The notes under the pieces were generated by a model. It was not told where the DNA came from. It did not search any database and worked only from the letters and a program-made list of their open reading frames with translations. The position numbers and the translations under genes were made by a program. From Nevskia sp. (GTDB taxonomy: Bacteria; Pseudomonadota; Gammaproteobacteria; Nevskiales; Nevskiaceae), in contig JAQGNU010000190.1 of the NCBI GenBank assembly GCA_028291645.1, forward strand, positions 3,113 to 67,112: 64,000 nucleotides of DNA, given 5' to 3'. Positions within the stretch are counted from its first letter, which is position 1, and every line of letters starts with the position of its first letter. This document shows, one piece after another, positions 864 to 59,858 of the stretch.

Positions 864-889
864 CGGGGCTGAAGATGTATTCCGAATAC

Positions 890-905
890 GGTATGTAACC
901 ATACC
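890..905. promoter_or_regulatory. Candidate operator copy 1: perfect palindrome GGTATG-TAAC-CATACC between the divergent OYE and TetR genes
   Basis: Read directly from the sequence. Arms are 6+6 with a 4-nt spacer. It lies in the 123-bp divergent intergenic region. Confidence 0.6.
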
Positions 906-986
906 ATATCCCGGTTCTGCTCGACGGAGGTCTCTAGCCGTTCGAGTGCCGGGCAGGCGCGCACGGACAGAATCGCAAAGGTTTGT

Positions 987-1679
987 GTGGCAGTAAAAGC
1001 CAAGGACCGGAGCAAGGCGGGCACAGCGTCCGCGCCGACAGATTCATCGCGCCATACCGGCAGGCGCGCACCGGGACGTCCGACCGTCGAGCAGGCCAGC
1101 GAGTTGCGCGAGAACATTCTCGATGCCGCGCTCGATGTCTTCTTCAGGCATGGCTTCGAGGCCAGCAGCATGGAGGGCATTGCACGCGCGGCGAGCGTCG
1201 CCAAAATCACGCTGTACCGGCATTTCGAGACCAAGGAGCAGCTGTTCGTGGAGGTCGCACGCCGCGCGCAGCTGCGCGTCCGCAGCAGCCTCGCATTCAT
1301 GGTCGACACGCGGGCACCACTCGAACAGGTACTGCGGAAAATTATCGAAACGCTCTACGACGGATTTACCCAGCCGCAATATCTTGCGGTGATGCGGATG
1401 GTGATCGCGGAAGCGACACGCTTCCCCAAGCTGGGGCGCGCGATGCTGAACGATTCGAAGATCGTTGCCGAGCCCCTGGTTCAATACCTGCAGCAGCTCA
1501 AGGACAGCGGCCAGATCGCGATCGAATCCGCCTACGACGCAGCCACACAGATTTCCGGCATGGCGAGCGGCGCCGGACGCTACCTGCTGGTAACGCCGTC
1601 GCGCCATCCGATGAGTCGCCAGCACTGGATCGAAACGCTGGTGAGCCTGTTCACGCGCGCCTGGCGCGTCGAAGCCTGA
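987..1679 (+). CDS. TetR/AcrR family transcriptional regulator
   Basis: N-terminal HTH signature ENILDAALDVFFRHGFEASSMEGIARAASVAKITLYRHFETKEQLF. 230 aa. Divergent from the OYE gene. Confidence 0.9.
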   Translation: MAVKAKDRSKAGTASAPTDSSRHTGRRAPGRPTVEQASELRENILDAALDVFFRHGFEASSMEGIARAASVAKITLYRHFETKEQLFVEVARRAQLRVRSSLAFMVDTRAPLEQVLRKIIETLYDGFTQPQYLAVMRMVIAEATRFPKLGRAMLNDSKIVAEPLVQYLQQLKDSGQIAIESAYDAATQISGMASGAGRYLLVTPSRHPMSRQHWIETLVSLFTRAWRVEA

Positions 1680-3461: not shown

Positions 3462-4022
3462 ATGATTAACAGGTTAACCATATTGATATCGTACATGCGC
3501 GGAATCGAACGTCTGGCATCAGTAGAACGAAGCACACCGCCGATGGCGGAGGCCTTGCCCGAACTGCCGATGGCGGAAACAGTCATGGTGCGGCTGATGC
3601 GCATCGGCGTATTCGGCCTCGGCAATTTCTTCGAGCCGGTATTCCGCGAACTCGGCTTGACCGAGAACAGTTTCCACGTGCTCTGCCTGCTGATGGCTGG
3701 CGACCAGGGCCGCGCATCGCCGAGCGAGCTAAGTGAACTGGTAGGCACCACCCGCGCGAACATGACCCGCATTCTCGATTCGCTGGTCAACGACGGCTTG
3801 GCCTCTCGCGCCATCGAGGCACGCGACGGACGACGTCACGTCATTCGCATTACCACGGCCGGATGCAAGGTCGCGAGCGAAGCCGGTCCCAGACTGGTCG
3901 AGCCCTTGAAGCGGGCGTTCTCGGGCCTGGACGCAGACGAGCTTGCATCATTGGACCGGTTGCTACGCAAAGCGATCGTGTCCTTCGACAAGGGTGCGAC
4001 GCCGCTGCGTGTCGCGGCCTGA
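3462..4022 (+). CDS. MarR family transcriptional regulator (alternative start ATG 3543)
   Basis: Winged-helix MarR region: FHVLCLLMAGDQGRASPSELSELVGTTRANMTRILDSLVNDGLASR...DGRRHVIRITTAG. Confidence 0.85.
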   Translation: MINRLTILISYMRGIERLASVERSTPPMAEALPELPMAETVMVRLMRIGVFGLGNFFEPVFRELGLTENSFHVLCLLMAGDQGRASPSELSELVGTTRANMTRILDSLVNDGLASRAIEARDGRRHVIRITTAGCKVASEAGPRLVEPLKRAFSGLDADELASLDRLLRKAIVSFDKGATPLRVAA

Positions 4023-5938: not shown

Positions 5939-5958
5939 ATGGTATGTTTCCATACCAT
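5939..5958. promoter_or_regulatory. Candidate operator: perfect 20-bp palindrome ATGGTATG-TTTC-CATACCAT, overlapping a -10-like CATAAT (5956-5961)
   Basis: Read directly from the sequence, 85 nt upstream of the proposed TTG start at 6043. It falls inside the implausible N-extension of track ORF 5920. Confidence 0.6.
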
Positions 5959-9144: not shown

Positions 9145-9750
9145 ATGGCAGCGCCACACAACAGCAAGAAAAAGGCAGCGAGCAGCGCCCGCAGCAAGCC
9201 TGCCGTCAAAACGAAGAGCACTGGGACATCTGCATCGAAGCGGAAGAATTCAGGCGACAAGGAGACCTCGGCTTCTGGCGTCATCAGTACCCAGTCACGT
9301 GACGACATCCGTCTGAGCTTCCTGATTCACGATGTGTCGCGCATGCGCCGCGCCGTCTACGATCAGTTCATGAAACCGCTTGGTATCACGCGCGCGCAAT
9401 GGTGGGTGCTCGCGCATCTGTCGCGCAGCGACGGCATGATGCAGACGCAGCTCGCCGACGTGCTGGATGTCGGCAAGGCCAGCCTGGGTGATGTTATCGG
9501 GAGCCTTGAATCGGGCGGCTGGGTCGCGCGAATGTCGGATCCATCCGACAAACGCGCCAAGCGCGTGTTCCTGACTCCGCCGGCTCAATCGCTGATCAAG
9601 CGGATGACGGTGATGGAAGTGCAGTTCAACGATCGCGTGTTCGCCAAGCTCTCGCTGGAAGAACGCACCAAGCTGTTCGACATGATGCTGACGATCAAGC
9701 AGTCGCTGTCGCAGCTGTCTGCCAACGGCAACATCGATTCGGCCGACTGA
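9145..9750 (+). CDS. MarR family regulator with a ~55-aa Lys/Ser-rich basic N-terminal tail
   Basis: Tail: MAAPHNSKKKAASSARSKPAVKTKSTGTSASKRKNSGDKE. MarR core: ITRAQWWVLAHLSRSDGMMQTQLADVLDVGKASLGDVIGSLESGGWVARMSDPSDKRAKRVFLT. Confidence 0.85.
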   Translation: MAAPHNSKKKAASSARSKPAVKTKSTGTSASKRKNSGDKETSASGVISTQSRDDIRLSFLIHDVSRMRRAVYDQFMKPLGITRAQWWVLAHLSRSDGMMQTQLADVLDVGKASLGDVIGSLESGGWVARMSDPSDKRAKRVFLTPPAQSLIKRMTVMEVQFNDRVFAKLSLEERTKLFDMMLTIKQSLSQLSANGNIDSAD

Positions 9751-14420: not shown

Positions 14421-14443
14421 ATTATATCGTATGGTACCAAACT
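14421..14443 (-). promoter_or_regulatory. Candidate operator (CGTATG-GTAC-CAAACT, 14428-14443) abutting a -10 TATAAT (complement of 14421-14426) upstream of icmF
   Basis: The minus strand reads AGTTTGGTACCATACG-A-TATAAT, 40 nt before the icmF ATG. Confidence 0.5.
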
Positions 14444-14471
14444 ATGATCGTCACGGATTGCGCCACGCCTC

Positions 14472-14504
14472 GCGCTGGCCGGCGTGGCGCACGCCGGCCA
14501 GCGC
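14472..14504. repeat. Perfect 15-bp-stem / 3-nt-loop GC-rich hairpin, flanked by 7-bp direct repeats GGATTGC (14455-14461 and 14510-14516)
   Basis: GCGCTGGCCGGCGTG-GCG-CACGCCGGCCAGCGC, read directly from the sequence. It lies between the SDR stop codon and the icmF promoter. No U-tract follows it. Confidence 0.6.
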
Positions 14505-14516
14505 CCGCAGGATTGC

Positions 14517-19916: not shown

Positions 19917-20684
19917 TCACCCATGCATCGACAGGCCGCCGGAGATGCTGATGGTCTGGCCGGTCATGAAGCTGGCATCGTCGCTGGCGAGGAATGCCAC
20001 CAGTCCAGGATAGTCGTCCGGCTCGCCGATGCGGCCGAGTGGCACGCCGCGCACCATCGCATCACGGATCTTCTGGCCGGCCTCGCCGGTGCCGACGAAG
20101 GCATCCATCGCCGGCGTATTGGTCGGTCCCGGGCACACGCAGTTGAGCAGCACGTTGTTGCGCGACACTTCGCGCGCGAGTGCTTTCGCGAATGCGATCG
20201 TCGCGCCCTTGCAGCCGGAATACACCACTTCGCCCGAGGAGCCGACACGGCCGGCATCCGACGCGATGAAGATGATGCGTCCGCCGTTGCGCTTGACCAT
20301 GCCCGGTGCGACAGCGTGCGTCAGATGCAGCGGCCCCATGTAATTGATGTTGACAACCTTCTGCCAGAAGTCCGGCGTGGTCTTGAGGAACGGGATCGGC
20401 TGATCCCAGCCGGCGTTATTGACCAGCGCCCAGGTCGGTCCCAGGCGCTCCTCCAGCTTTTCCACAGCGACCTGCACGCTGCGATAGTGGGTGATGTCGC
20501 AGCATTCGGCATCGGCCTTGCCGCCGGCGGCGCTGATCAACTCGACCGTCTTCGCCGCAGCTTCGGTGTTGATGTCGAGCACGCCGACCACCATTCCTTC
20601 TTCCGCGAGGCGAAGGGCAATCGCTCGTCCGATGCCGCTGCCGGCGCCCGTGACGAGGGCAACTCGATCTTTCAAACCGCGCAA
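19917..20684 (-). CDS. SDR, BadH-like (2-hydroxycyclohexanecarboxyl-CoA dehydrogenase-like / FabG-like)
   Basis: VALVTGAGSGIGRAIALRL...LVNNAGWDQPIPFLKT...IASDAGRVGSSGEVVYSGCKGA...GQTISISGGLSMHG. Confidence 0.88.
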   Translation of the reverse strand: MRGLKDRVALVTGAGSGIGRAIALRLAEEGMVVGVLDINTEAAAKTVELISAAGGKADAECCDITHYRSVQVAVEKLEERLGPTWALVNNAGWDQPIPFLKTTPDFWQKVVNINYMGPLHLTHAVAPGMVKRNGGRIIFIASDAGRVGSSGEVVYSGCKGATIAFAKALAREVSRNNVLLNCVCPGPTNTPAMDAFVGTGEAGQKIRDAMVRGVPLGRIGEPDDYPGLVAFLASDDASFMTGQTISISGGLSMHG

Positions 20685-20737
20685 TGTCTTCTCCTGATTA
20701 AACAGCTGAATTGGAGCTTGGAACCAAAAGGTGCGGC

Positions 20738-20766
20738 ATTATAGTATGCTGCCATACTAAAATCCA
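20738..20766. promoter_or_regulatory. Candidate operator TAGTATG-CTGC-CATACTA (20742-20759) embedded in two overlapping divergent promoters: -10 TATAAT on the minus strand (20738-20743) and -10 TAAAAT on the plus strand (20758-20763)
   Basis: Read directly from the sequence: cATTATAGTATGCTGCCATACTAAAATcc. It lies in the 182-bp divergent region between the BadH-like operon and the TAG operon. Confidence 0.6.
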
Positions 20767-20866: not shown

Positions 20867-21736
20867 GTGAGTATGAGCATAGCGGTGCTGCACCAGGAGA
20901 GCCCGCCGGAGGTCGATGTATATGAGCAGGGTTCGGGTTCGACGCTGGTGCTGCTGCACGGACTCAGCGGCACCTGGCATATCTGGAAGCCGGTGCTCGA
21001 TCGGCTGCAGGCCTACCATCACGTGATTGCACCGACGCTACCGGGACATCGCGGGGGACCGCCGATGCCGGCAGGCGTGGAGCCGACGGTGGCGGCGATG
21101 GCCGATCTGCTGATCGCCACTTTCGCCGCACGTGGTATCCATTCCGCGCACGTTGTGGGGAACTCTCTGGGCGGCTGGCTGGCGCTCGAACTGGCGCGGC
21201 GCGGATTCGCCAGGTCCGTCGTGGTGTTTTCACCGGCCGGTGCCTGGCGGCGCCCGCAGGATTATCGCGACGTGTCGCGGCCCTTCAGCATCTTCTTCGT
21301 GCTGATGCCGCTACTGTTGATGCTGACCACCCTGTTTCTCGGATTCGCCTGGCTGCGACGCGCGCTCGGCCGGCAGACCATGGAGCACGCCGAACGCATC
21401 GCGCCGACGGACTTCCGCGACTCGCTGTCGGCGTTCAGCAAGACCACGGTGCTGCCGACGCTGCTGCGCACGATGGGCCGCGATGGCCCGATCGCGGGAA
21501 TCGATGCGCCCGGTACTCCGATCCGCATCGTCTGGGGCGAGCAGGATCGCGTGATTCCGTTCGAGCGCTACGGGCGGCCGATGCTCGAGCGCGTTCCGGC
21601 AGCGGAATGCCTGCACCTGGCCGGCGTCGGTCATGTGCCGATGTATGACGACCCGGCGAAAGTGGCGCAGGCGATTCTCGACGTCACCACCGCCGCGGAT
21701 GCGAGCGCAATGGCGTTGCCCGCAGGTGCTGCGTGA
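20867..21736 (+). CDS. Alpha/beta-fold hydrolase (alternative start ATG 20873)
   Basis: LVLLHGLSGTWHIW...VVGNSLGGWLALELA (nucleophile elbow)...AGVGHVPMYDDP. Confidence 0.85.
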   Translation: MSMSIAVLHQESPPEVDVYEQGSGSTLVLLHGLSGTWHIWKPVLDRLQAYHHVIAPTLPGHRGGPPMPAGVEPTVAAMADLLIATFAARGIHSAHVVGNSLGGWLALELARRGFARSVVVFSPAGAWRRPQDYRDVSRPFSIFFVLMPLLLMLTTLFLGFAWLRRALGRQTMEHAERIAPTDFRDSLSAFSKTTVLPTLLRTMGRDGPIAGIDAPGTPIRIVWGEQDRVIPFERYGRPMLERVPAAECLHLAGVGHVPMYDDPAKVAQAILDVTTAADASAMALPAGAA

Positions 21737-23577
21737 ACGGCAGCCTGTCTTCGATACTGCGCTCGCGCAAGAGCTATGCGCGGGAAGTGCTGAAAACAGA
21801 TCGCTTCCGCAAGCAGTTGGAATTACTCGCACGCCGCCTGAAGCGGCCACTCGACGAGGTCAAGGCCGAGGCCACGATCGGGCTCGAAGAGATCGTCACC
21901 GTGCAGAACCCGATGTATAGCGCGATGTTCGACCACGGTCTCGGACCGATGCATACGCGCGCCTGGACGGTCGCAGCCGATCGCGATGAATTGCGGCATC
22001 TGAAGCGTTTGAACGCCAAAAATCCCTTGGTCTTCCTGCCGACACACCGCTCCTATGCGGATGCCTTCATCCTGACCAAGGTGTTGCGCGAGAACGGTCT
22101 GCCGCGCAATCACATCCTTGGCGGCAACAACCTCGGCTTCTTTCCGCTCGGCACCATCATCCGTCGCGCCGGCGGTGTGCTGGTGCGGCGCAGCTTCAAG
22201 GACGACGAGGTCTACAAACTGGTCGTGCGCGAGTATCTCGGCTATCTCGTCGCGCAGGGCCGCAACCTTGAGTGGTACATGGAGGGCGGCCGCTCGCGCA
22301 CCGGCAAGCTGCGGCCGCCGAAGTACGGCCTGCTGCGATATCTGGTCGACGCCATTGAAAGCGGCGTCGCCAAGGACATGCTGTTGGTGCCGGTTGCGAT
22401 CACCTACGACCAGTTACACGAAGTCGGCGTGATGGCCGCCGAGGAGGCCGGTACCGCGAAGACCCAGGAAGGCCTGCGCTGGCTCGCGGGTTATGCGCGC
22501 GGCCAGCAGAAATGGATCGGTACCGCATTCGTGCGTTTCGGTGAAGCGCTGTCGTTGCGCGAAGCACTGCAGCGCGCCGACAGTGAATCCGGCGGCAGCA
22601 AGTGGACGGTCGAGAAGATTGCGTTCGAAGTGTTCCAGCGGATCAACCGGGTCACGCCGGTCACCGCACCGGCGCTGGTCACGCTGGCGCTGCTCGGTGT
22701 GCGCGATCGTGCGTTGACCTTGCCCGAAGTGCGCGGACTGGTCGATCCGCTGCTCGAATTCGCAGTACAGCGCGGCTTCCCGTCGGGCCAGCTCGAATCG
22801 CTCAACGACGATACCGGTCTGCTCGGCACGCTGGCCGCGCTGGCGAAGTCGGGCGTCGTGCGTTGTCACGAGAGCGGTGCGGAGCCGGTCTATGGCATCA
22901 ACCCCGGACAGCACTCGGTCGCTGCGTTCTATCGCAACAGCGCGATCCACTGGTTCGTCAATCGCGCGCTCACCGAGCTGGCGCTGGTGAGCGTCGACGG
23001 CAGTGTTGACGGCGATCCCCTGCAGCTGGCCTGGGAAAAGGCATTCGCTTTGCGCGACCTGCTGAAGTTCGATTTCTTCTTCAGTGACCGCCAGACCTTC
23101 CGCGACGAGATCAAGACCGAAGCGCGCCTGCTCGATGCCGAATTTCGCGACCACGTGGCCACTCCGCGCGCGCGCCGGCAGCTGTTGCGCAAGGCGCCGT
23201 TCCTGATCGCGCATCGCGTGCTGCCGGCGTTTCTCGAGGCGTACTTCATCGTCGCGGAGCGGCTCGCCATGCGGCCCGCCAATCAGCCGGTCGATCAGGA
23301 GGCGCTGGTCAACGAGTGCTACGGCGTCGGCCGTCAATATTTGCTGCAGCACCGTCTGCACAGTCCTGAAGCGATTTCCCGCGAGCTCTATCGCAATGCC
23401 TTGTTGCTGGCTGCCAATCGCGGCCTGCTGCCGAAAACGGTTGCCGAGGATGCCGGGCAACTCGACGAACTCGCGCTGCGTCGGCGTGCATTCGCGACCG
23501 AACTGGAGATGGCGGTGAAGGCCGTCAATGCAATCGACGAACTCGAGCAATCGCGTCTGAAGCTGGAGCTGGAATGA
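21733..23577 (+). CDS. PlsB-like glycerol-3-phosphate acyltransferase (short actinobacterial/proteobacterial type)
   Basis: Acyltransferase blocks FLPTHRSYADAF (HX4D), GGNNLGFFPLGTIIRRAGGVLVRRSF, YMEGGRSRTGKL and VPVAITYD. The GTG start overlaps the upstream stop codon (GTGA). Confidence 0.85.
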   Translation: MNGSLSSILRSRKSYAREVLKTDRFRKQLELLARRLKRPLDEVKAEATIGLEEIVTVQNPMYSAMFDHGLGPMHTRAWTVAADRDELRHLKRLNAKNPLVFLPTHRSYADAFILTKVLRENGLPRNHILGGNNLGFFPLGTIIRRAGGVLVRRSFKDDEVYKLVVREYLGYLVAQGRNLEWYMEGGRSRTGKLRPPKYGLLRYLVDAIESGVAKDMLLVPVAITYDQLHEVGVMAAEEAGTAKTQEGLRWLAGYARGQQKWIGTAFVRFGEALSLREALQRADSESGGSKWTVEKIAFEVFQRINRVTPVTAPALVTLALLGVRDRALTLPEVRGLVDPLLEFAVQRGFPSGQLESLNDDTGLLGTLAALAKSGVVRCHESGAEPVYGINPGQHSVAAFYRNSAIHWFVNRALTELALVSVDGSVDGDPLQLAWEKAFALRDLLKFDFFFSDRQTFRDEIKTEARLLDAEFRDHVATPRARRQLLRKAPFLIAHRVLPAFLEAYFIVAERLAMRPANQPVDQEALVNECYGVGRQYLLQHRLHSPEAISRELYRNALLLAANRGLLPKTVAEDAGQLDELALRRRAFATELEMAVKAVNAIDELEQSRLKLELE

Positions 23578-25028
23578 CGTATACGATGGACGAAGCCGTT
23601 GCGGCCATCATGGCCGCGCCTCAAGGCCCAGAGGTCTGTGCGTTCTTTGACTTCGACGGCACGCTGATCGACAGCTATTCCGCGACTGCGTACTTCACCG
23701 ACCGCGTGCGCTCCGGCGAAGCCGACTGGCGCGAGATTGCCGGCATGCTGAAGCTGCTGATGCACGGCGAACTCAGCGACGAGGAGTTCAAGCAGGTCAT
23801 CAGCAATGGCGTGCTTGACTGGGCCGGGCGCACCGAGACCGATATGCAGACGCTGTGGACGCGCCTGTTCAAGGAGAAGATCTCCGACTGGCTGTTTCCA
23901 GAAGCCTGGCGGCTGGTGCAGGCGCACAAGCGGAGGGGTCATACGATTGTGATCGCATCGTCCGCCACGCCCTACCAAGCGGCGCCGCTGGCGGCGGAGA
24001 TGGGGATCAAGCATCTCCTGTGCACCCAGCCGATGATCCGCAACGGCAAGCTCACCGGCGGCATCGTCGGCGAACCGCTGTGGGGCGAGGGCAAGGCCAA
24101 TGCGGTGAAGAAGTTCGCGAAAGCGCACAAGATTTCGCTCAAAGCTTGCTACGCCTATGCCAACGGCAACGAGGACGTGCCGTTCCTGAAGACCGTCGGA
24201 CATGCCACCGCGGTCAATGCCAAGGAAGCGCTGACGCACGTCGCAGGCGAGCGGGGCTGGCCGCAGCTGCGCTTCGAACGACGTAGCAAGACATCGCTGT
24301 CTGCAGTGGCAAGGACCGTCGGCGCGTATGGTGCGATGGCGGCCAGCTTCGTGATCGGTCTCGGCTATGCCAAGGCCACCGGCAAGACGCGCCGCGCGGT
24401 CGACATGATCAGCGCGGTGGGCAGCGACTGGGGGCTTGCAGTCGCCGGCATCGAGGTTGAAGTGCAGGGTGAACATAATCTTTGGGCACAACGTCCGGCG
24501 GTGTTCCTGCTGAATCACCAGAGCAAGCTGGATTTCTTCGTGATGATGTACATCACGCGGCGTGGCTTCACCGGTGTGGCAAAAAAGGAAGCTGCGAATA
24601 CGCCCGGCTTCGGCCCGTTCATGCGCATGGCCGATATGGTGTTCATCGACCGCGCCAACGTCGCCCACGCGCGCGAAGCCTTGTCGCCGGTGGTCGAGAA
24701 GATCAAGGCTGGCTTGTGCCTGTGCATCGCGCCCGAGGGCACGCGCTCATGCTCGCCGCGGATCGGCCTGTTCAAGAAAGGCGCGTTCCATATCGCGCGC
24801 CAGGCCGGTGTGCCGGTGGTGCCGGTGGTGATCCGCAACGCCGCCGAAATGATGTCGCGCAACGGCCAGAGTTTTCGCCCCGGCAAGGTCCAGGTCGCCG
24901 TGCTGCCGCCGATCGATGTGCAGGGCTGGAAGTTGTCCGAGATGGACGAAAAGGTTGCCGAGGTGCGGCAGCTGTTCGTTGACACACTCGATCGCTGGCC
25001 TGGCGAAACTTTCGGAGCGCAACGGTGA
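23574..25028 (+). CDS. Bifunctional HAD-IB phosphatase domain + 1-acyl-sn-glycerol-3-phosphate acyltransferase (PlsC) domain
   Basis: HAD motifs FFDFDGTLID, VIASSAT and GEGKA...ANGNEDVPF. PlsC motifs LLNHQSKLDFF (HX4D), FIDR, IAPEGTRS and PVVPVVI. ATGA overlap with the upstream gene. Confidence 0.9.
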   Translation: MTYTMDEAVAAIMAAPQGPEVCAFFDFDGTLIDSYSATAYFTDRVRSGEADWREIAGMLKLLMHGELSDEEFKQVISNGVLDWAGRTETDMQTLWTRLFKEKISDWLFPEAWRLVQAHKRRGHTIVIASSATPYQAAPLAAEMGIKHLLCTQPMIRNGKLTGGIVGEPLWGEGKANAVKKFAKAHKISLKACYAYANGNEDVPFLKTVGHATAVNAKEALTHVAGERGWPQLRFERRSKTSLSAVARTVGAYGAMAASFVIGLGYAKATGKTRRAVDMISAVGSDWGLAVAGIEVEVQGEHNLWAQRPAVFLLNHQSKLDFFVMMYITRRGFTGVAKKEAANTPGFGPFMRMADMVFIDRANVAHAREALSPVVEKIKAGLCLCIAPEGTRSCSPRIGLFKKGAFHIARQAGVPVVPVVIRNAAEMMSRNGQSFRPGKVQVAVLPPIDVQGWKLSEMDEKVAEVRQLFVDTLDRWPGETFGAQR

Positions 25029-26032
25029 AGCGGCTCAAGCGCGTCACCGTGCTCGGCGGTGGTTCCTGGGGCACCACTGTCGCTTCGCTGGTCAGCGCGA
25101 ACGCCGCGACGACGCTGTGGATACGCAACGAAGAAGCCGCAGAGCAGGTCAACCGCGAGCATCGCAATCCACGCTATCTCGGCGAACTGGCGCTACATGC
25201 GGGCCTGCGCGCGACGGCTTCGCTGCAGGAGGCCTTGTCCGATTGCGACGTGCTGGTGCTGGGCGTGCCCTCGCACGCGATGCGCGAAATCCTGCGCGAT
25301 TGCGCGCCGATCCTGCGTCCCTGGGTGCCGGTGATCAGTCTCGCCAAGGGGCTCGAACAGGGTAGCCATCGACGCATGACCCAGATCATCAACGAAGAAT
25401 TGCCGGGTCATCCGGCGGGCGTATTGGCGGGTCCCAACATTGCGCGCGAGGTGTTGCAGGGAATGGCCGCTGCTGCGGTGATCGCGATGACCGACGAGCA
25501 GGTCGGACGCGCGCTGCAGCCGCTGTTCGGCAGCCGCGTATTCCGCGTCTATCTGAATACCGACGTGATCGGCTGCGAACTCGGCGGCCCGCTGAAGAAC
25601 GTCATCGCGATTTCAGCCGGCATGGGCGATGGCCTCGGCGTCGGCCACAACACGCGCTCGTTGGTCATCACGCGCGGCCTGGCCGAGATTACGCGCCTGG
25701 GTGTCGCGCTCGGCGGCCGCGCCGAAAGCTTCGCCGGCCTTACCGGTCTCGGCGATCTGCTGACGACCTGCATGAGCCCGTTGTCGCGCAACCGCCAGGT
25801 TGGCGAGCGGCTCGCGCACGGCGAAAGCATTCCACAAATCGTCACCTCGATGCACATGGTCGCTGAGGGCATCAAGACCAGTACGGTGGTGATGGAACTG
25901 GCAGAAAAGTATCAGCTGAAGTTGCCGATCGCGGCCGAAGTCTCGGGTGTGGTCAAGGGCGAACGCACGGTTGCACAGGCGTTCCGGGGCTTGCGCGGCA
26001 TCGCGCCCGGTTCGGAACACGAGGCGGCGTGA
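25025..26032 (+). CDS. gpsA: NAD(P)H-dependent glycerol-3-phosphate dehydrogenase
   Basis: VTVLGGGSWGTTVA...NPRYL...LAKGLE...GPNIAREV...PLKNVIAISAGM...NRQVGERLAHG. GTGA overlap with the upstream gene. Confidence 0.93.
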   Translation: MKRLKRVTVLGGGSWGTTVASLVSANAATTLWIRNEEAAEQVNREHRNPRYLGELALHAGLRATASLQEALSDCDVLVLGVPSHAMREILRDCAPILRPWVPVISLAKGLEQGSHRRMTQIINEELPGHPAGVLAGPNIAREVLQGMAAAAVIAMTDEQVGRALQPLFGSRVFRVYLNTDVIGCELGGPLKNVIAISAGMGDGLGVGHNTRSLVITRGLAEITRLGVALGGRAESFAGLTGLGDLLTTCMSPLSRNRQVGERLAHGESIPQIVTSMHMVAEGIKTSTVVMELAEKYQLKLPIAAEVSGVVKGERTVAQAFRGLRGIAPGSEHEAA

Positions 26033-27564
26033 AGCAGCGTCGCCATTACAGAGGCATCAAACAACAGGACCAGGCAATGTCGGATTCAAGTCAGCAGATC
26101 CTCGACGAACTCCAGCACTGGGGAGGACCCGCCGAGCTGAGTGCATTCGAGGCGGTGATGTGGCGCGCGGAAAGCGATCCGCGGCTGCGTTCGACCACAA
26201 CCTCGGTATTCATCCTCGATCGCGTGCCGGACTGGCCGCGCCTGTATGCCGGTCATCAATGGCTGGTGCGGGCAGTTCCGCGTTTCCGCCAACGGGTGCT
26301 CGATCCCGCGATCGGCTTGCCGACCTGGGTCGAAGACGGTCGTTTCAATCTCGACTATCACCTGCGTCGGCTGTCGCTGCCGGCGCCGGGCAGCGAACGC
26401 CAGCTGTTCGATCTCGCGCAGACACTGGCGATGGTGCCGTTCGACCGCGTGCGTCCGCCGTGGGAAGGCACGCTGGTCGAAGGTCTCGAAGGCGGGCGTG
26501 CGGCCTATGTGCTGAAGCTGCATCACGCGACCTCGGATGGTCTCGGCATCATGCAGCTGCTGAGCCGCGTGCTGGGTCGCACCCGCGAGCCGAGCCGGCG
26601 CGCAATGCCGAAACCGGATATAGCCGGCGCAGCGCGTGCTCGCAGCGGCACTCGATCCGCGATGCAGCAGCTGCTTGGCCTGCCGCAGCAGGCGGCCGGC
26701 ACCGTGAGCGCGCTGCTCGGTGCGGCGCGCCGCTACGTCGCCGAGCCGGAAGCGCTGCGCGCCGCGCTGGATTACGGCAAGTCTGCGCAACGCGTCCTCG
26801 GCGCCAAGCCGGTAGCAGGTTCTCCGATTCTGAAACGGCGCAGCCTGGACTGGCGTTTCGACGCCATCGAGATTGCGCTCGATGAACTCAAGTCGGCTGC
26901 ACGCGCCTGCCAGGGCTCGCTCAACGATGTCTTCCTGGCGGGATTGATCGGTGGCTTCCGCCGCTATCACGAGGCCATGGGGGTGCCGTTGAAGCAAATG
27001 CCGATCGGTTTCCCGATCAGCTTGCGCAAGGAAGGCGACGCGATCGGCGGCAACAAATTCGCCGGCATGCAGTATCCGGCGCCGATCGACGAACTCGATC
27101 CGATCGCGCGCGTGCGCCACATCCAGGCCTTCGTCAGTGATGCGCGCGGCGAGCCTGCGCTCGGCGTCATGGTGCATCTGATGCCAGTGGTGATGTGTCT
27201 GCCGAACTCGGCGATGACTGCGCTCACCGCGGCGTTCACCACCGCGCAGGACGCGCAGATCAGCAACATCCCCGGCATCGCCGAAGACGTCTACATGGCC
27301 GGCGCCAAGCTCACCCATTTCTGGCCGTTCGCGCCGATACCCGGCTGCGCCATGATGCTGGCGATGATTTCGCACAACGGCCGTTGCTGCATCGGCCTCA
27401 ACAGCGATCGTGCTGCAGTGGTCGAGCCGCAACTGCTGGTCGACTGCCTGCGCGAAGGGCTGCAGGAAATGCTGGCGCTGGGGACGACTGCGGCCAACAA
27501 ACCGGCGCAGCCGGCCCATTCAAAAACTGCGGGCAAGCGCTCGCGCGCAACGGTGGGCGCATGA
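26029..27564 (+). CDS. Wax ester synthase / acyl-CoA:diacylglycerol acyltransferase (WS/DGAT). Alternative start ATG 26077
   Basis: Active-site motif HHATSDGLG (HHxxxDG), with LSAFEAVMWRAE at the N-terminus and NIPG in the C-terminal half. GTG 26029 overlaps the gpsA stop codon (GTGA). ATG 26077 has an AGGA RBS. Confidence 0.9.
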   Translation: MKQRRHYRGIKQQDQAMSDSSQQILDELQHWGGPAELSAFEAVMWRAESDPRLRSTTTSVFILDRVPDWPRLYAGHQWLVRAVPRFRQRVLDPAIGLPTWVEDGRFNLDYHLRRLSLPAPGSERQLFDLAQTLAMVPFDRVRPPWEGTLVEGLEGGRAAYVLKLHHATSDGLGIMQLLSRVLGRTREPSRRAMPKPDIAGAARARSGTRSAMQQLLGLPQQAAGTVSALLGAARRYVAEPEALRAALDYGKSAQRVLGAKPVAGSPILKRRSLDWRFDAIEIALDELKSAARACQGSLNDVFLAGLIGGFRRYHEAMGVPLKQMPIGFPISLRKEGDAIGGNKFAGMQYPAPIDELDPIARVRHIQAFVSDARGEPALGVMVHLMPVVMCLPNSAMTALTAAFTTAQDAQISNIPGIAEDVYMAGAKLTHFWPFAPIPGCAMMLAMISHNGRCCIGLNSDRAAVVEPQLLVDCLREGLQEMLALGTTAANKPAQPAHSKTAGKRSRATVGA

Positions 27565-28451
27565 ACATGAAACATACCGAAGGCACGCTGTTCGGCGTCA
27601 ACAATCTCAGTATCTTCCGCCAATCCTGGGTGCCGCTGAATCCGCGCGCGGTGGTGGTGATCGCACATGGCCTGGGCGAGCACAGCGGACGCTATGCGCA
27701 TGTCGTCGAGCATCTGTGCGCGCTCGGCTGTGCGGTCTATGCGCTCGATCATCGCGGGCACGGCCGCTCGGCCGGTCCGCGCGCCTATGTCGATCGCTTC
27801 GCGCATGCGGTGTCCGATCTTGATCAACTGGTCGACCTGGCGCGACGCGAGCAGCGCACGTCATCGCTGAAGCGTCCGCTGTTCCTGCTCGGGCACAGCA
27901 TGGGTGGCGCACTCGCGTTGAGCTACACGCTGAAATTCCAGGGCAAGCTCGATGGACTGATTCTGTCGGGTGCCGCCGTCGCGCTCGACGGCGCACCGCC
28001 GCTGATGAAGCCGCTGGCAAAGCTGCTGTCCGTGCTTGCGCCCAAGCTCGGCATGTTCCACGTGCAGGCGGAACTGATCAGCCGCGATCCGGCGGTGGTC
28101 GCAGGCTACAACAGTGATCCGCTCAATTGCCACGGCAAGGTGCCGGCACGCACGCTCGGCGAAATCGTCAATCTGGTCGAGTGGCTGCCCGCTGCCTTGT
28201 CGGTGCTGAAGCTGCCGATGCTGGTGATGCACGGCGGTGCCGACAAGCTGGCGGGTGTCGCCGGTAGCGAGAGGGTGTTCGCGCGCGCGGGTTCGGCCGA
28301 CAAGACGCTGAAGATCTACGACGATCTGTACCACGAAATCTTCAACGAGCTGCCGCCGGATCGAGCGCGGGTACTGCTTGATCTCGGCGGCTGGATCGAA
28401 GCGCGCTTCGTGTTGCAAGGCGCGGTTTCGGGTCGGCTGAAGTCGGCCTGA
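27561..28451 (+). CDS. Monoacylglycerol lipase / lysophospholipase-type alpha/beta hydrolase
   Basis: VVIAHGLGEHSGRYAHVVEHL...LDHRGHGRS...LLGHSMGGALA...HGGADKL...YHEIFNE. The ATG overlaps the WS/DGAT stop codon (ATGA). The track ORF 27195 carries an out-of-family N-extension. Confidence 0.85.
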   Translation: MNMKHTEGTLFGVNNLSIFRQSWVPLNPRAVVVIAHGLGEHSGRYAHVVEHLCALGCAVYALDHRGHGRSAGPRAYVDRFAHAVSDLDQLVDLARREQRTSSLKRPLFLLGHSMGGALALSYTLKFQGKLDGLILSGAAVALDGAPPLMKPLAKLLSVLAPKLGMFHVQAELISRDPAVVAGYNSDPLNCHGKVPARTLGEIVNLVEWLPAALSVLKLPMLVMHGGADKLAGVAGSERVFARAGSADKTLKIYDDLYHEIFNELPPDRARVLLDLGGWIEARFVLQGAVSGRLKSA

Positions 28452-28516: not shown

Positions 28517-28534
28517 TAGTATGCTACCATACTA
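28517..28534. promoter_or_regulatory. Candidate operator: perfect palindrome TAGTATG-CTAC-CATACTA
   Basis: Read directly from the sequence, 32 nt upstream of the MaoC gene at 28566. It differs from the 20742 copy by one spacer base. Confidence 0.6.
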
Positions 28535-28565: not shown

Positions 28566-29048
28566 ATGGCTGGGCTGTACTTCGAGCAGTTCGAGGTGAA
28601 CAAGGTGTTCCGGCATGAAATCCGGCGCACTGTCACCGAGTCGGACAACGTCTGGTTCTGTGGTGCGACCTACAATTCGGCGCAGATCCATATCGACGCG
28701 GAATACTGCGCGACGACAGAGTTCGGCAAACCGCTGGTGAATTCGATCTTCACGCTGGGACTGGTGATCGGACTGTCGATCCAGGACACCACGCTCGGTA
28801 CCACGATCGCCAATCTCGGCATGACCGACACTCGCTTTCCGAAGCCGGTGTTCGCCGGCGACACGATCCATTCGGTGACTACCGTGGTCGAACTGCGCGA
28901 CAGCAAGTCGCGTCCGACCACCGGCATCGTCACGTTCCGCCACGAAGGCTTCAACCAACGCGGCGAACTGGTCTGTACCTCGTTGCGCCAGGCGCTGATG
29001 ATGCGCAGTCCGGTCGCCCGTCCCGCGGAAGCGGTCAGCGCAAGCTGA
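28566..29048 (+). CDS. MaoC family dehydratase (single hot-dog enoyl-CoA hydratase)
   Basis: LYFEQFEVNKVFRHEIRRTVTESDNVWFCGATYNSAQIHID...FTLGLVIGLS...FPKPVFAGDTI. RBS GAGAGGAG. Confidence 0.85.
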   Translation: MAGLYFEQFEVNKVFRHEIRRTVTESDNVWFCGATYNSAQIHIDAEYCATTEFGKPLVNSIFTLGLVIGLSIQDTTLGTTIANLGMTDTRFPKPVFAGDTIHSVTTVVELRDSKSRPTTGIVTFRHEGFNQRGELVCTSLRQALMMRSPVARPAEAVSAS

Positions 29049-29065
29049 ATATTTTGGAGCCTTCG

Positions 29066-30232
29066 ATGAATTTTGCAGTCAATCCGGACCACCAGGCCAT
29101 CCGCGACGGCGTCAGTGCCGTCGTCCGTTCGTTCAAGGACGAATACTGGCTGGAGCGTGATGAAGATGGCCGCTTCCCCGTGGAATTCCATCGCGCGATG
29201 GCGGAGGGCGGCTGGCTCGGCCTGACGATGCCCGAGGAGTACGGCGGCTCCGGCCTCGGCGTGACCGAGGCCATGATCATGATGCATGAAGTCGCCAGCC
29301 ATGGCGGCGGGATGGCGGCTACTTCCACGGTGCATATCAACCTGTTCGGGCCGCATCCGATCGTCGTCTTCGGCACGCCCGAGCAGAAGACGCGCTGGAT
29401 TCCGCGACTGGTCGCCGGCGCGGACCAGTGCTGCTTCGGTTTCACCGAGCCGGACGCTGGTTTGAACACCACGGCGATCAAAACCTTCGCCCAGAAAGTT
29501 CCGGGTGGCTATCGGGTTAACGGCCAGAAGGTCTGGACCTCGACCGCGCAGGTCGCCAACAAGATCATGCTGCTGACGCGAACCACCAAGCTGGAGGACT
29601 GCAAGCGCCCGACTGATGGCATCACGATCTTCTATACCGATCTCGATCGCAGCAAGATCGAAGTGCAGAAGATTCCGAAGATGGGACGCAAGGCGGTCGA
29701 TTCCAATGCGATCTTCATCGATGACCTGTTCATTCCCGACGAGGATCGTATCGGCGAGGAGGGCAAGGGCTTCGGCTACGTGCTGCACAGTCTGAATCCC
29801 GAACGCGTGCTGATCGGCGTCGAAGCCATCGGCATCGGGCAGGACGCGCTGCGCCGCGCATCGAAATACGCGCGCGAGCGTATCGTCTTCGGCCGCCCCA
29901 TCGGCATGAACCAGGGCATTCAGCATCCGCTTGCGGAAAAGTGGATGCAGCTCGAGGCGGCCTATCTGATGGTTTCGAAAGCGGCCTGGCTGTACGACAA
30001 CCATCAGCCTTGCGGTGCCGAAGCGAACGCCGGCAAGTTCCTCGGCGCGCGCGCCGGCTACGACAGCTGTCTGCAGGCAGTGTTGACCTTCGGCGGTTTC
30101 GGCTACGCCAAGGAATATCACGTCGAGCGGCTGCTGCGCGAAGTGACGATCACGCGCATCGCGCCGATCACCGAACAGCTGATCCTGTCGTTTATCGCAG
30201 AAAAAGTTCTCGACCAGCCAAAATCATACTGA
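29066..30232 (+). CDS. Acyl-CoA dehydrogenase
   Basis: MNFAVNPDHQAIRDGV...MPEEYGGSGLG...FGFTEPDAGLNT...GGFGYAKEYHVERLLRE. ATG 29066 lies 6 nt after GGAG. The track start at 29054 is TTG. Confidence 0.9.
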   Translation: MNFAVNPDHQAIRDGVSAVVRSFKDEYWLERDEDGRFPVEFHRAMAEGGWLGLTMPEEYGGSGLGVTEAMIMMHEVASHGGGMAATSTVHINLFGPHPIVVFGTPEQKTRWIPRLVAGADQCCFGFTEPDAGLNTTAIKTFAQKVPGGYRVNGQKVWTSTAQVANKIMLLTRTTKLEDCKRPTDGITIFYTDLDRSKIEVQKIPKMGRKAVDSNAIFIDDLFIPDEDRIGEEGKGFGYVLHSLNPERVLIGVEAIGIGQDALRRASKYARERIVFGRPIGMNQGIQHPLAEKWMQLEAAYLMVSKAAWLYDNHQPCGAEANAGKFLGARAGYDSCLQAVLTFGGFGYAKEYHVERLLREVTITRIAPITEQLILSFIAEKVLDQPKSY

Positions 30233-30275: not shown

Positions 30276-30295
30276 ATCGTATGGAAGCATACGAT
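30276..30295. promoter_or_regulatory. Candidate operator: perfect 20-bp palindrome ATCGTATG-GAAG-CATACGAT
   Basis: Read directly from the sequence, 31 nt upstream of the ACAD start at 30327. Confidence 0.6.
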
Positions 30296-43214: not shown

Positions 43215-43350
43215 GCGGCTGCTGCTTTCAGGAAGCCCAGCCACGCGCTGCGGGATCGTCGCGGACAGGCGCGCTTGCGGCCGGCGCAATCGAGCGCCAT
43301 GCAAGCATCTTCCGATCAACTTACAAGCCAGCCAGCCTGAATGTTGAATA

Positions 43351-43379
43351 GTCTGTAACCATACGGTATTGTTACCTAC
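43351..43379. promoter_or_regulatory. Candidate operator, tandem pair: GTCTG-TAAC-CATAC G GTATT-GTTA-CCTAC
   Basis: Two 14-bp units separated by 1 nt, 51 nt upstream of the acetaldehyde dehydrogenase gene. Confidence 0.45.
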
Positions 43380-57635: not shown

Positions 57636-57979
57636 CTTCTAATCCTCCAGTCGCACATCGAACGGTGTCGAAAAAATAGCTCCGCATCGACACACCTGTC
57701 CGGATAATAGCGATAGTATTGTTCCGTATCAATATAGAGGAAGACCGGGAAAGGCAGGCAATGCAAGCGGCCCCTGTCAGGCAGCGCGAGGCAGATGGCA
57801 TGAAGCTGCGCGAATTGCACTCCGGAAGCCTTGGCGGTCGGTATCTTCCGACGCGACGAACGGCGCGTTGTTACTGGTCGTTCTGAGCGCGAGTGGGGCA
57901 GCAGATCCCTGCGAAAGTCTCTGGCGGAATCGGAAGCCGGCAGCAAATCAACAAGCTGTGGGGCTTGCATTTATAAAAT

Positions 57980-57995
57980 AGTATGGTACCGTACG
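57980..57995. promoter_or_regulatory. Candidate operator, one mismatch: AGTATG-GTAC-CGTACG, within an AT-rich stretch
   Basis: Read directly from the sequence, inside the 830-bp non-coding region. Related half-conserved copies lie at 57715-57730 and 58321-58334. Confidence 0.4.
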
Positions 57996-58466
57996 CATAT
58001 ATTAAATATTCGAGCATTAGATACATAGGAGTGCTTGGAATTGGCGGCATGGAAGGCTCATAAAAGGTAGCGAACCTGACTTGTAGTAGAACTTGTTGTG
58101 CGACGAAAAGAACGACGCGATACGACGTCGATGCTTAGATAGAAAGCTCAGCGCGGCACTGACCGCACGCCACGAAGCTGCAACGGACGGAGGAATTACT
58201 TGCTTAATCTTGAAGTCGTGCCAGAGCGGCGGCCAACCCAATCGCGCTGCGTTCGGTGCTTGCCGAAGGCCAGTTCAACGTGAGCGCTCAACGCGCATAT
58301 CGACTCGCGTTAAAAATAAGGTCTGGAACCATACGTATTTATGAGGCCCGCATCGGAGCGACGATTCCGTGCGCTCTGCCGCGAATGCCTCGGGGCCCAT
58401 CGAATTAGCCACTTCGTCCGAAGCGGATTTCAGTGACCTAGTAAAACATTTTGAGGAGAGCACGAG

Positions 58467-59858
58467 ATGCACATCAGGAAATACGATTTTGATTACGGTC
58501 GCCGCATGCTGCTTCAGAAAGCTGCGGTCGGTGCCACTGCCGGCGTGCTTGCGCCGCTGTGGCCCACGATTGCGCGATCGGGTCAGGTGACGAAGGCCTA
58601 TCCGGATGAGTTGATCAGCATTGAGGCCAATACCAAGGGCAAGGTCAAGGTCGGAGATGTCATCACCTCGGCCAACGTCGAGTATGTGAAGCATCTGATG
58701 GATCCCATCATGTACGACCAGGTCCTCAAACAGGGCCGCAAGATTACGATCGGGCCACCCACCACCGACGTCTCCAAGCTGTTTCCGCATGCCTACTACG
58801 AAGCGACGCTGAGAAACGCCGGCAAGGCCGCGTTCGATGCTACCGGCAACGTTGTCGAGAAGGCGACTGGTGGCCCGTGGATCGGCGGCAACCCGTTTCC
58901 GGAGATGCGTACCGGTGAAGAGGCGACCGCCAACATCACGCTGAGCTGGGGTCGCCACGATATCTCGCAGTACGCCGTGCGTGACTTCGACATCAACCCG
59001 AACGGATCGCCGGCATTCACCTACGACTTCTTTTGGACGGAACTGAACACGACCTGTCGTACCGGCGCGGAAAAGATTTTCCAGGGCCATAAGGACATGT
59101 TGCGGTATCAGTCGGTGTTCTTCACTTCGCCGCAGGAACAGGCCGGCGCGTCGTTTCTGGTGCCCTGGTATTACGACCAGCGCAAGTTTCCGGACATCTA
59201 CGGCTACCTGCCGCAATTCCGCCGCATCCGTCAGTTCCCGGCCAACCAGCGTTTCGAACCGCTGGTCCCCGGTATCACCTTGTTTCTGTCCGACGCCTGG
59301 GGCGCCGGCGATCCGATGCTGACCTGGGGCAACTACAAGGTGGTGCGGCGCGAGCCGCATCTGGTGCCGGGCAACGGTAACTGGCGCGGCAAGGAGCACC
59401 CGAATTGGGAAAACCACCATCGTCACGGCGGTCCCAAGGGCGAGACCTTCATGGACACGACCATGGAACTGGTTCCGGAAACGCTGGTGATCGATGCGGA
59501 ACCGACCGGTTATCCGCGCGCGCCCGTCGGCAAGAAGACCATGTGGATCGACGCCCGCAACGGCATGCTCGCCGGCTACGTCACCTATGACCGTCGCGGA
59601 CAAATCTGGAAGCAGGTCGAAGGCGCGTTCGGCCAGCAGGTCCAGGGCGACGTCGTCAACAAGGACAAGGACGGCTATCCGAACTGGTCGTGGACGTTCG
59701 TGCACATCCAGGACGTGCAGTCGGGCCGCATGAGCTTGCTCAACCACGTCAAGCAGATTTCGGGCGGCTACTCGAGTTCGTATTACGCGGAAGACGAAGG
59801 AAAGGTCTACGACGGCTTCCTGACTCAGGCGGCGATTGCCCGTTTAGGTGCCGTTTAA
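58467..59858 (+). CDS. DUF1329 family periplasmic/outer-membrane-associated protein with a Tat-like signal
   Basis: RBS GAGGAGAG. N-terminus YGRRMLLQKAAVGATAGVLAPLW. Core GGPWIGGNPFPEMRTGEE...NITLSWGRHD is typical of DUF1329. Confidence 0.82.
   Translation: MHIRKYDFDYGRRMLLQKAAVGATAGVLAPLWPTIARSGQVTKAYPDELISIEANTKGKVKVGDVITSANVEYVKHLMDPIMYDQVLKQGRKITIGPPTTDVSKLFPHAYYEATLRNAGKAAFDATGNVVEKATGGPWIGGNPFPEMRTGEEATANITLSWGRHDISQYAVRDFDINPNGSPAFTYDFFWTELNTTCRTGAEKIFQGHKDMLRYQSVFFTSPQEQAGASFLVPWYYDQRKFPDIYGYLPQFRRIRQFPANQRFEPLVPGITLFLSDAWGAGDPMLTWGNYKVVRREPHLVPGNGNWRGKEHPNWENHHRHGGPKGETFMDTTMELVPETLVIDAEPTGYPRAPVGKKTMWIDARNGMLAGYVTYDRRGQIWKQVEGAFGQQVQGDVVNKDKDGYPNWSWTFVHIQDVQSGRMSLLNHVKQISGGYSSSYYAEDEGKVYDGFLTQAAIARLGAV

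Follow-up and report, generated by a model that had tools for sequence, protein, structure and literature searches.

Gene clusters thought to carry the Kennedy route to triacylglycerol (TAG) have been described in Actinobacteria and, more recently, in Gammaproteobacteria. In Mycobacterium tuberculosis, Rv2483c and Rv2484c adjoin lipQ (Rv2485c), a glycerol-3-phosphate acyltransferase (GPAT) gene (Rv2482c) and an enoyl-CoA hydratase gene, and Kennedy-type TAG synthesis has been suggested for the cluster (PMC10699116). PlsB2 is a proven sn-1 acyltransferase acting on glycerol-3-phosphate and on 2-acyl-lysophosphatidate (PMC10593935). In the atf9-plsB-plsC operon of Rhodococcus jostii RHA1, PlsC is an AGPAT-HAD fusion whose HAD domain has been proposed to act as phosphatidate phosphatase (PAP) (PMC4850399, Amara et al. 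2016). Two gammaproteobacterial scaffolds from sediment, OP731424 and OP731425, hold complete Kennedy gene sets adjoining ws/dgat, one of them with an adjacent gene for a glycerol-3-phosphate dehydrogenase that uses NAD(P)H, and the genes are common to Arenicella xantha and Woeseiaceae (PMC10351704, 2023). Here we analyze a six-gene operon at positions 20867-28451 (+ strand) of a stretch of 64,000 nucleotides, referred to as the window, from the Nevskiaceae-like draft genome (3.8 Mb, 91% complete) of a soil/water gammaproteobacterium. The operon adds another lineage to this known cluster type. It probably encodes an accessory Kennedy-type pathway leading from dihydroxyacetone phosphate (DHAP) and activated fatty acids to TAG, with wax esters as a possible further product. 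Current concepts are left unchanged; a predicted cluster type is extended to a further lineage and a regulatory hypothesis is attached to it. What we add is that the module is accessory and inherited as a unit, and that a local operator regulon would tie it to lipid catabolism.

The six-gene operon and its described relatives

The open reading frame (ORF) list, searched with Pfam and NCBIfam profiles, gives six co-directional genes in the order abh1-plsB-HAD::plsC-gpsA-wsdgat-abh2:

20867..21736, + strand: abh1, alpha/beta hydrolase (Abhydrolase_6; nucleophile elbow GNSLG)
21733..23577, + strand: PlsB2-like GPAT (PF01553 and GPAT_C; HX4D motif HRSYAD at residue 105)
23574..25028, + strand: HAD-IB::PlsC fusion (N-terminal HAD domain, PF12710; C-terminal lysophosphatidate acyltransferase (LPAAT) domain, PF01553)
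25025..26032, + strand: GpsA, a glycerol-3-phosphate dehydrogenase using NAD(P)H (PF01210 and PF07479; NF009098 at 504 bits against a cut-off of 436; GGGSWG)
26029..27564, + strand: wax ester synthase/diacylglycerol acyltransferase (WS/DGAT; PF03007 at 165 bits, PF06974 at 77 bits; HHATSDG at residue 165)
27561..28451, + strand: abh2, predicted monoacylglycerol-lipase-type hydrolase of the Rv0183/MGLL type (PF12146 at 260 bits; GHSMG at residue 111)

These matches agree with the gene order and identities proposed in an initial annotation of the locus made from the sequence alone, and the catalytic motifs are all intact (HX4D twice, DxDxT, PEGTR, GGGSWG, HHxxxDG, and GxSxG twice). The best model for the GPAT is that of mycobacterial PlsB2 (PRK03355), which it matches over positions 186-778 of 787 with 676.5 bits. 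Since this score lies under the cut-off of 721 and the N-terminal ~185 residues of the model are absent, the protein is best named PlsB2-like. It is not of the E. coli type (TIGR03703, 210 against a cut-off of 618.5; PRK04974, 227 against 610). WS/DGAT passes TIGR02946 marginally, with a score of 311.0 against 309.95. The assignment of abh2 is backed by a match to the M. tuberculosis monoglyceride lipase 6EIC over its full length (residues 4-282, E 1e-61) and by one to the human enzyme (E 1e-44). For abh1 the nearest solved relative is a weak one (6I8W, E 1e-12), and alignments with its homologues do not begin before residue 12-20, which leaves room for a start slightly further downstream. Within the hydrolase fold of abh1, residues 135-164 (window 21269-21358) include a very hydrophobic stretch of ~24-30 residues, FSIFFVLMPLLLMLTTLFLGFAWL, with a Kyte-Doolittle value of 2.47, which could serve as a membrane or lipid-droplet anchor or as a lid.

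Neighboring genes overlap by four nucleotides at each of the five junctions, as the initial annotation had listed: GTGA at 21733, ATGA at 23574, GTGA at 25025, GTGA at 26029 and ATGA at 27561. Four of these overlaps are supported by homologue N-termini, since alignments with proteins from Panacagrimonas and Nevskia (loci L001-L005) begin at residues 1-6 of PlsB, HAD::PlsC, GpsA and abh2. The start of the WS/DGAT gene is ambiguous. Both GTG 26029 and ATG 26077 have a Shine-Dalgarno-like element (AGGA in the case of the ATG), and Nevskia homologues align from residue 2 while most others align from residue 15-28. Overlaps of the same kind occur at 2092 and 19917 in the window, and we regard them as the ordinary operon style of this genome, not as exceptional. 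They do point to operon organization. A terminator scan found no terminator-like element on the + strand within the cluster or after abh2.

The likeness to Rv2482c-Rv2485c that had been pointed out in the initial annotation is borne out by the literature, which gives the same cluster and the same proposed role (PMC10699116). With the M. tuberculosis and RHA1 clusters the operon shares a PlsB2-type GPAT, HAD::PlsC and WS/DGAT trio beside a hydrolase, as well as the proposal that one operon serves the whole Kennedy pathway with the HAD domain as PAP. As in actinobacterial clusters, the PlsB2-type GPAT and HAD::PlsC genes are adjacent (here with a 4-nt overlap), the WS/DGAT gene lies inside, and the proteins are orthologous to cluster-linked copies. 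The differences lie in the gammaproteobacterial host, in gene order, in the 4-nt overlaps at all junctions, in the presence of gpsA and two hydrolases inside the operon, in the missing N-terminal region of the GPAT, and in a palindromic operator held in common with beta-oxidation operons. The scaffolds of PMC10351704, which include Arenicella xantha DSM 24032 and Woeseiaceae, resemble the operon in host class, in having a GPAT, a PAP/AGPAT fusion, a WS/DGAT and a hydrolase or lipase side by side, and in the interpretation given by their authors. They differ in lineage (ours is Nevskiaceae), in a comparison made by description, not by sequence or gene order. That study contains no analysis of operators, translational coupling or accessory status.

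The module is accessory, not housekeeping, since the genome encodes PlsX (contig C197), PlsY (C119), a long PlsB of the E. coli type (C129, in an 834-aa frame), a second GpsA (C91, 37% identical to that of the operon) and six other PF01553 (PlsC-type) ORFs elsewhere, along with four other WS/DGATs. The check for separate copies that the initial annotation had called for therefore sustains its distinction between this operon and housekeeping phospholipid synthesis, and we rejected a housekeeping role. With six coupled genes, no paralogues inside the operon, and housekeeping genes kept separate, the cluster forms a compact cassette that would be convenient for heterologous TAG production.

A scan of species-representative genomes with the fusion protein yielded 80 loci. 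The named relatives of the fusion are from Nevskiaceae, Panacagrimonas and Nevskia, in line with the proteobacterial host that had been claimed for it. The full gene order recurs in metagenome-assembled genomes of Panacagrimonas and Nevskia (L001-L003 and L005); it is also seen in a Nevskia (L004) and a Salinisphaerales (L006) assembly, in both of which the contig ends within the cluster. A 'Rubrivivax' assembly (L021) keeps the order without abh1, while Zhongshania, Solimonas and Stenotrophobium carry shorter forms of the cluster. Linkage was scored as presence within 5 kb of HAD::PlsC at loci with flanks of at least 5 kb, 37 from Actinomycetota and 12 from Pseudomonadota. PlsB is linked in 36/37 and 9/12 of these, respectively, and WS/DGAT in 30/37 and 9/12. 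Synteny takes the form of a six-gene order in relatives and of a PlsB, HAD::PlsC and WS/DGAT core that is widespread in Actinomycetota. Monoacylglycerol lipase is linked in 9 of the 12 proteobacterial loci and 5 of the 37 actinobacterial ones. For gpsA the counts are 6/12 and 7/37; a proteobacterial version containing gpsA is moreover not new, having been reported in 2023 (PMC10351704).

For the proteins of the operon, cluster-linked homologues from Actinobacteria are closer than the paralogues of the same genome, which argues that the module travels as a unit. Identities are 41-46% against 24-31% for WS/DGAT, 48-60% against 37% for GpsA, and 38-53% against 31% for PlsB. An unrooted maximum-likelihood tree shows HAD::PlsC as a single family, in which sequences from assemblies labelled gamma-, beta- and alphaproteobacterial form one clade (99% SH-aLRT), connected to the actinobacterial diversity by a short branch; being unrooted, the tree does not give the direction of transfer between the phyla. 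Occurrence is patchy, with the fusion in 19/121 genomes and 5/30 genera of its own order, 7/13 genomes of its own genus and 4/400 of the class. Distribution hints at an actinobacterial origin, being broad in Actinomycetota and sparse in the order and class of the host. Recent horizontal acquisition found no support, as the GC content of the cluster (64.7%) is unremarkable beside that of the genome (63.2%), and any acquisition would be old. By these comparisons, the operon is accessory and probably a horizontally shared module of a Nevskiaceae-type proteobacterial host.

Two further observations concern the fusion protein in other genomes. Fusions from assemblies labelled Xanthobacteraceae, Alphaproteobacteria, Rhodoferax and Rubrivivax (L007, L009, L015, L016, L021 and L027) fall inside the proteobacterial clade, and one labelled 'delta proteobacterium' (L046) falls within the actinobacterial clade; these represent either true cross-class spread or mis-binned or mislabelled contigs. 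Three genomes of the host's own order (G115, G102 and G105) carry two or three HAD::PlsC copies with 48-58% identity, a pattern that suggests the module was acquired repeatedly or duplicated.

Putative palindromic operators and a candidate regulator

Upstream of abh1, in the 182-nt intergenic region that separates it from a divergent short-chain dehydrogenase/reductase (SDR) gene, lies a perfect 7+7 palindrome. A near-identical copy follows the operon, and related sites are found elsewhere in the window. Sites are palindromic and are given without strand:

20742..20759: predicted operator O(TAG), TAGTATG-CTGC-CATACTA, TAGTATGCTGCCATACTA, in the divergent SDR(-)/abh1(+) intergenic region
28517..28534: predicted operator, TAGTATG-CTAC-CATACTA, TAGTATGCTACCATACTA, 32 nt upstream of the MaoC-ACAD (acyl-CoA dehydrogenase) operon (28566-30232)
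889..906: predicted operator with core GGTATG-TAAC-CATACC, lying in a TetR gene's divergent promoter region
5940..5957: predicted operator, upstream of an HMGCS-like/thiolase operon
14427..14444: predicted operator, ahead of the IcmF-thiolase operon (- strand)
30277..30294: predicted operator, upstream of ACAD-desaturase-enoyl-CoA hydratase (ECH)-acyl-CoA synthetase genes
43349..43366: weaker operator-like site with 1 core mismatch, between thioesterase and acetaldehyde dehydrogenase genes
57979-57996 and 58319-58336: two weaker operator-like sites, each with 1 mismatch in the core, that precede ORF 58467-59858
20718..20745, + strand: sigma-70-like promoter TTGGAA-16-TATAGT, a consensus match only, with its -10 hexamer overlapping the left operator arm of O(TAG)
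19917..20684, - strand: SDR gene, first of an SDR-ECH-ECH... operon, divergent from abh1 across the common operator region
987..1679, + strand: TetR-family regulator (TetR_N and TetR_C_7), candidate repressor, with the operator at 889 in its own promoter region

The palindromes at 20742 and 28517 had been noticed before and are both present; they agree at 17 of 18 positions, with a chance expectation of 0. The earlier statement that they bracket the operon is misleading, since the second belongs to the promoter of the following gene, MaoC (28566), and lies 32 nt upstream of that gene. The GTATG-N4-CATAC operator occurs at least 9 times on the contig, ahead of beta-oxidation-type operons. A role as bracket or insulator was rejected, as the motif heads many neighboring operons.

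Three lines of evidence bear on the function of the palindrome. First, it is strongly clustered. With up to 2 mismatches allowed, the window has 5 copies of the 18-mer, against 0 expected, and the other 3.76 Mb of the genome have a single one. All 5 perfect core sites in the genome, together with 11 of the 24 sites with at most 1 mismatch, lie on the contig of the window. Second, every strong site lies between genes and ahead of lipid genes. Third, the site upstream of abh1 is kept in five relatives, with a perfect core in L001, L002, L005 and L006 and 1 mismatch in L003, where a homologous site also precedes MaoC. Taken together, these comparisons provide good evidence for a functional operator. 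The promoter match is weak by itself (1 found against 1.3 expected in shuffled sequence) and is the sole sigma-70-like match in the region. The SDR gene stands head-to-head with abh1 across the operator in all of these relatives; its product is 79-84% identical among them, against 49-76% for the genes of the TAG operon, and a functional tie between the two is possible.

The conserved operator, common to catabolic operons, hints at joint switching of the TAG operon and acyl-CoA catabolism. In hydrocarbon-associated Gammaproteobacteria, storage and the breakdown of fatty acids would then be joined by a simple, testable logic. TetR-type regulators govern a number of fatty-acid regulons, among them those of Bacillus and Thermus FadR, Pseudomonas PsrA and mycobacterial KstR and FasR. 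The sites described here resemble such regulons in that palindromic operators overlie -10 regions in several operons of lipid catabolism and a TetR gene has a site in its own promoter. They differ in that the motif T-N-GTATG-N4-CATAC-N-A could not be assigned to a described regulator and in that a biosynthetic TAG operon appears within the regulon.

The TetR-family gene at 987-1679 is the leading candidate for the regulator, at somewhat less than an even chance. Its product scores below every NCBIfam cut-off. Own-promoter sites are present in 3/3 orthologues, counting this one, and lie ~100 nt upstream in L081 and ~50 nt upstream in L082. Two MarR genes in the window (3462-4022 and 9145-9750), each present in 4/5 relatives, show no convincing sites in their own promoters, and in L001 no regulator gene was found between the acyl-CoA synthetase and SDR genes.

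The proposed pathway and its alternatives

As predicted from sequence, the six genes could act in succession. GpsA would convert DHAP to glycerol-3-phosphate, which the PlsB2-like GPAT would acylate to lysophosphatidate and the PlsC half of the fusion would carry on to phosphatidate. The HAD half would then remove the phosphate to give diacylglycerol, and WS/DGAT would add a third acyl chain to form TAG, leaving the Rv0183-type monoacylglycerol lipase and abh1 to serve in turnover or editing. Transcription would start from the promoter whose -10 region lies under the 18-bp palindromic operator. Since the same operator appears to head at least five to eight neighboring acyl-CoA and fatty-acid catabolic operons, a single repressor would probably turn on fatty-acid breakdown and TAG synthesis jointly, with a surplus of acyl-CoA spilling over into neutral lipid. 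An acyl-CoA is the probable effector, and the TetR protein considered above a possible repressor. A bolder version of this scheme holds that one repressor and its operator wire the TAG operon and about eight catabolic operons, in an island of ~64 kb, as an acyl-CoA overflow valve and not as a response to nitrogen starvation, and that HAD::PlsC is the missing Mg-dependent bacterial PAP, channelling lysophosphatidate through phosphatidate to diacylglycerol. We consider this version tentative and rather doubtful.

Much depends on the fusion protein. For the enzyme that forms the diacylglycerol from which bacteria make TAG, HAD::PlsC was put forward in print as a candidate in 2016. The fusion exceeds the cut-offs of both relevant families (TIGR01490, 154 against 98; TIGR00530, 113 against 103), and its solved relatives include PlsC (5KYM, E 2e-25) for one half and an HAD-IB protein (3FVV, E 1e-16) for the other. 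The HAD half carries DFDGT at residues 26-30 and GNED at 198-201, and the PlsC half HQSKLD at 315 and PEGTR at 387. In an alignment of 18 proteobacterial-type homologues, HAD residues D26, D28, T30, S129/S130, K174, E200 and D201 are invariant. The HAD domain would act as a phosphatidate phosphatase, and the operon would be well suited to testing this in E. coli. The initial description of the module as self-contained is overstated, since it depends on the HAD domain being the PAP, which for homologues is a proposal (PMC4850399, PMC10351704). The Mg2+-dependent phosphatidate phosphatases of eukaryotes (lipin/Pah1) are likewise DxDxT HAD phosphatases in glycerolipid synthesis. They differ in domain type, the HAD domain here being HAD-IB (PSP-like, TIGR01490) and not lipin-type, and a sequence search of the PDB gave no relationship of HAD::PlsC to lipins.

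A different parallel is offered by plant GPAT4 and GPAT6, in which an N-terminal HAD-type phosphatase domain precedes a C-terminal PF01553 acyltransferase domain, the same order as in HAD::PlsC. These enzymes are reportedly acyltransferase-phosphatases whose HAD domain acts on lysophosphatidate to give monoacylglycerol. If the bacterial HAD domain did likewise, WS/DGAT could build diacylglycerol and TAG by monoacylglycerol acyltransferase (MGAT) and diacylglycerol acyltransferase activities, and the monoacylglycerol lipase would control the monoacylglycerol pool. The shared architecture would fit such a route, as would the presence of a dedicated Rv0183-type lipase in the operon, with its linkage in most of the proteobacterial loci, and the MGAT activity that the WS/DGAT of Acinetobacter is known to possess. 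Against it, the operon has a separate GPAT and an LPAAT-type domain, as the classical sequence from glycerol-3-phosphate through lysophosphatidate to phosphatidate requires, and the lipase is rarely linked in actinobacterial loci. We regard this route as quite improbable.

The nature of the final product raises a similar issue at the WS/DGAT step. On contig C56 (9335-10084, - strand), an NAD_binding_4 (PF07993) match of 143 bits in a 684-aa frame marks a fatty acyl-CoA reductase-like ORF. Wax esters could in that case be the main product, or another ester might be, with WS/DGAT using fatty alcohols and the glycerolipid genes serving lipid-body phospholipid. WS/DGAT enzymes are bifunctional, their product being set by substrate supply (PMC10351704), and the island around the operon includes genes of alkane/hydrocarbon type (desaturase/hydroxylase-like protein, ferredoxin reductase, alcohol dehydrogenase and FadL). 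The reductase-like gene lies neither in nor near the operon, however, and the four other WS/DGAT paralogues could make wax esters. Moreover, gpsA, GPAT, LPAAT and phosphatase in one operon fit only the acylation of a glycerol backbone. Wax ester as the main product is very improbable on these grounds.

Several points weigh against the proposal of a co-regulated TAG operon as a whole, and they fall into three groups. The first concerns the phosphatase. In motif IV of the HAD domain (residues 197-201, window 24162-24176), Asn197 replaces the canonical first Asp, giving YANGNED where 3FVV has YSDSVND; the Asn is invariant in all 18 of the aligned homologues, and catalysis could differ accordingly. 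Two PAP2-family genes exist elsewhere in the genome, so the HAD domain is not the sole conceivable PAP. For homologues the PAP role is presented as a proposal only (PMC4850399, PMC10351704), and the second of these treats the function of AGPAT-HAD proteins as yet to be worked out. The second group concerns product and regulation. The reductase-like gene on C56 makes wax esters possible alongside TAG. Read-through from abh2 into MaoC-ACAD is possible, as a terminator was not detected there, and an orthologue of the TetR candidate (E<=1e-30) was not found in G121, G123 and G124, three of the five operator-keeping relatives, in which the best matches reach 26-30% identity and lack a site in their vicinity. 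The third concerns physiology. Expression of atf9-plsB-plsC in RHA1 is highest under nitrogen excess and lower under nitrogen limitation, when plsB transcripts fall (PMC4850399; PMC10351704). Because this homologous operon is one of vegetative growth, 'storage' may be the wrong word, and the storage role under nitrogen limitation that was at first implied for the Nevskiaceae operon finds no backing in its best-studied homologue.

The same expression data lead to a further alternative, in which the chief function of the operon would be an acyl-CoA-dependent supply of phosphatidate and membrane phospholipid, made from exogenous or alkane-derived fatty acids during growth on lipids. WS/DGAT and the hydrolases would then act only in remodelling or as a safety valve, with TAG storage secondary. 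A peak under nitrogen excess and a fall under conditions in which TAG accumulates would suit such a route, mycobacterial PlsB2 has a major part in general glycerolipid (phosphatidate) synthesis (PMC10593935), and the predicted co-regulation with operons of fatty-acid catabolism agrees with growth on lipid. It would also complement housekeeping synthesis. The PlsX/PlsY route uses acyl-phosphate derived from acyl-ACP, and a CoA-dependent route would stand beside it. Three considerations make the phospholipid alternative unlikely: the frequent linkage of WS/DGAT in both phyla is hard to explain if neutral lipid is incidental, a phosphatase fused to the phosphatidate-forming enzyme would consume the phospholipid precursor, and the long E. 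coli-type PlsB on C129, able to use acyl-CoA, is already present in the genome. We continue to favor TAG as the probable product of the operon.

The surrounding island

The contig that holds the window (C54, 67.9 kb) is almost wholly a lipid and acyl-CoA catabolic island. It encodes MaoC and an acyl-CoA synthetase, several ACADs, thiolases and ECHs, an IcmF mutase of the fused type, a protein resembling HMGCS, and FadL, as well as a membrane desaturase/hydroxylase-like protein, a ferredoxin reductase and an alcohol dehydrogenase of alkane/hydrocarbon type. The only match to the 18-mer operator outside this contig, with 2 mismatches, is at C110:13287, between a divergent SDR gene and a gene resembling that of 3-oxoacid CoA-transferase subunit A (lipid/ketone catabolism). 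Finally, a GC-rich hairpin is present at 14455-14516, between an SDR stop codon and the operator of the icmF operon.

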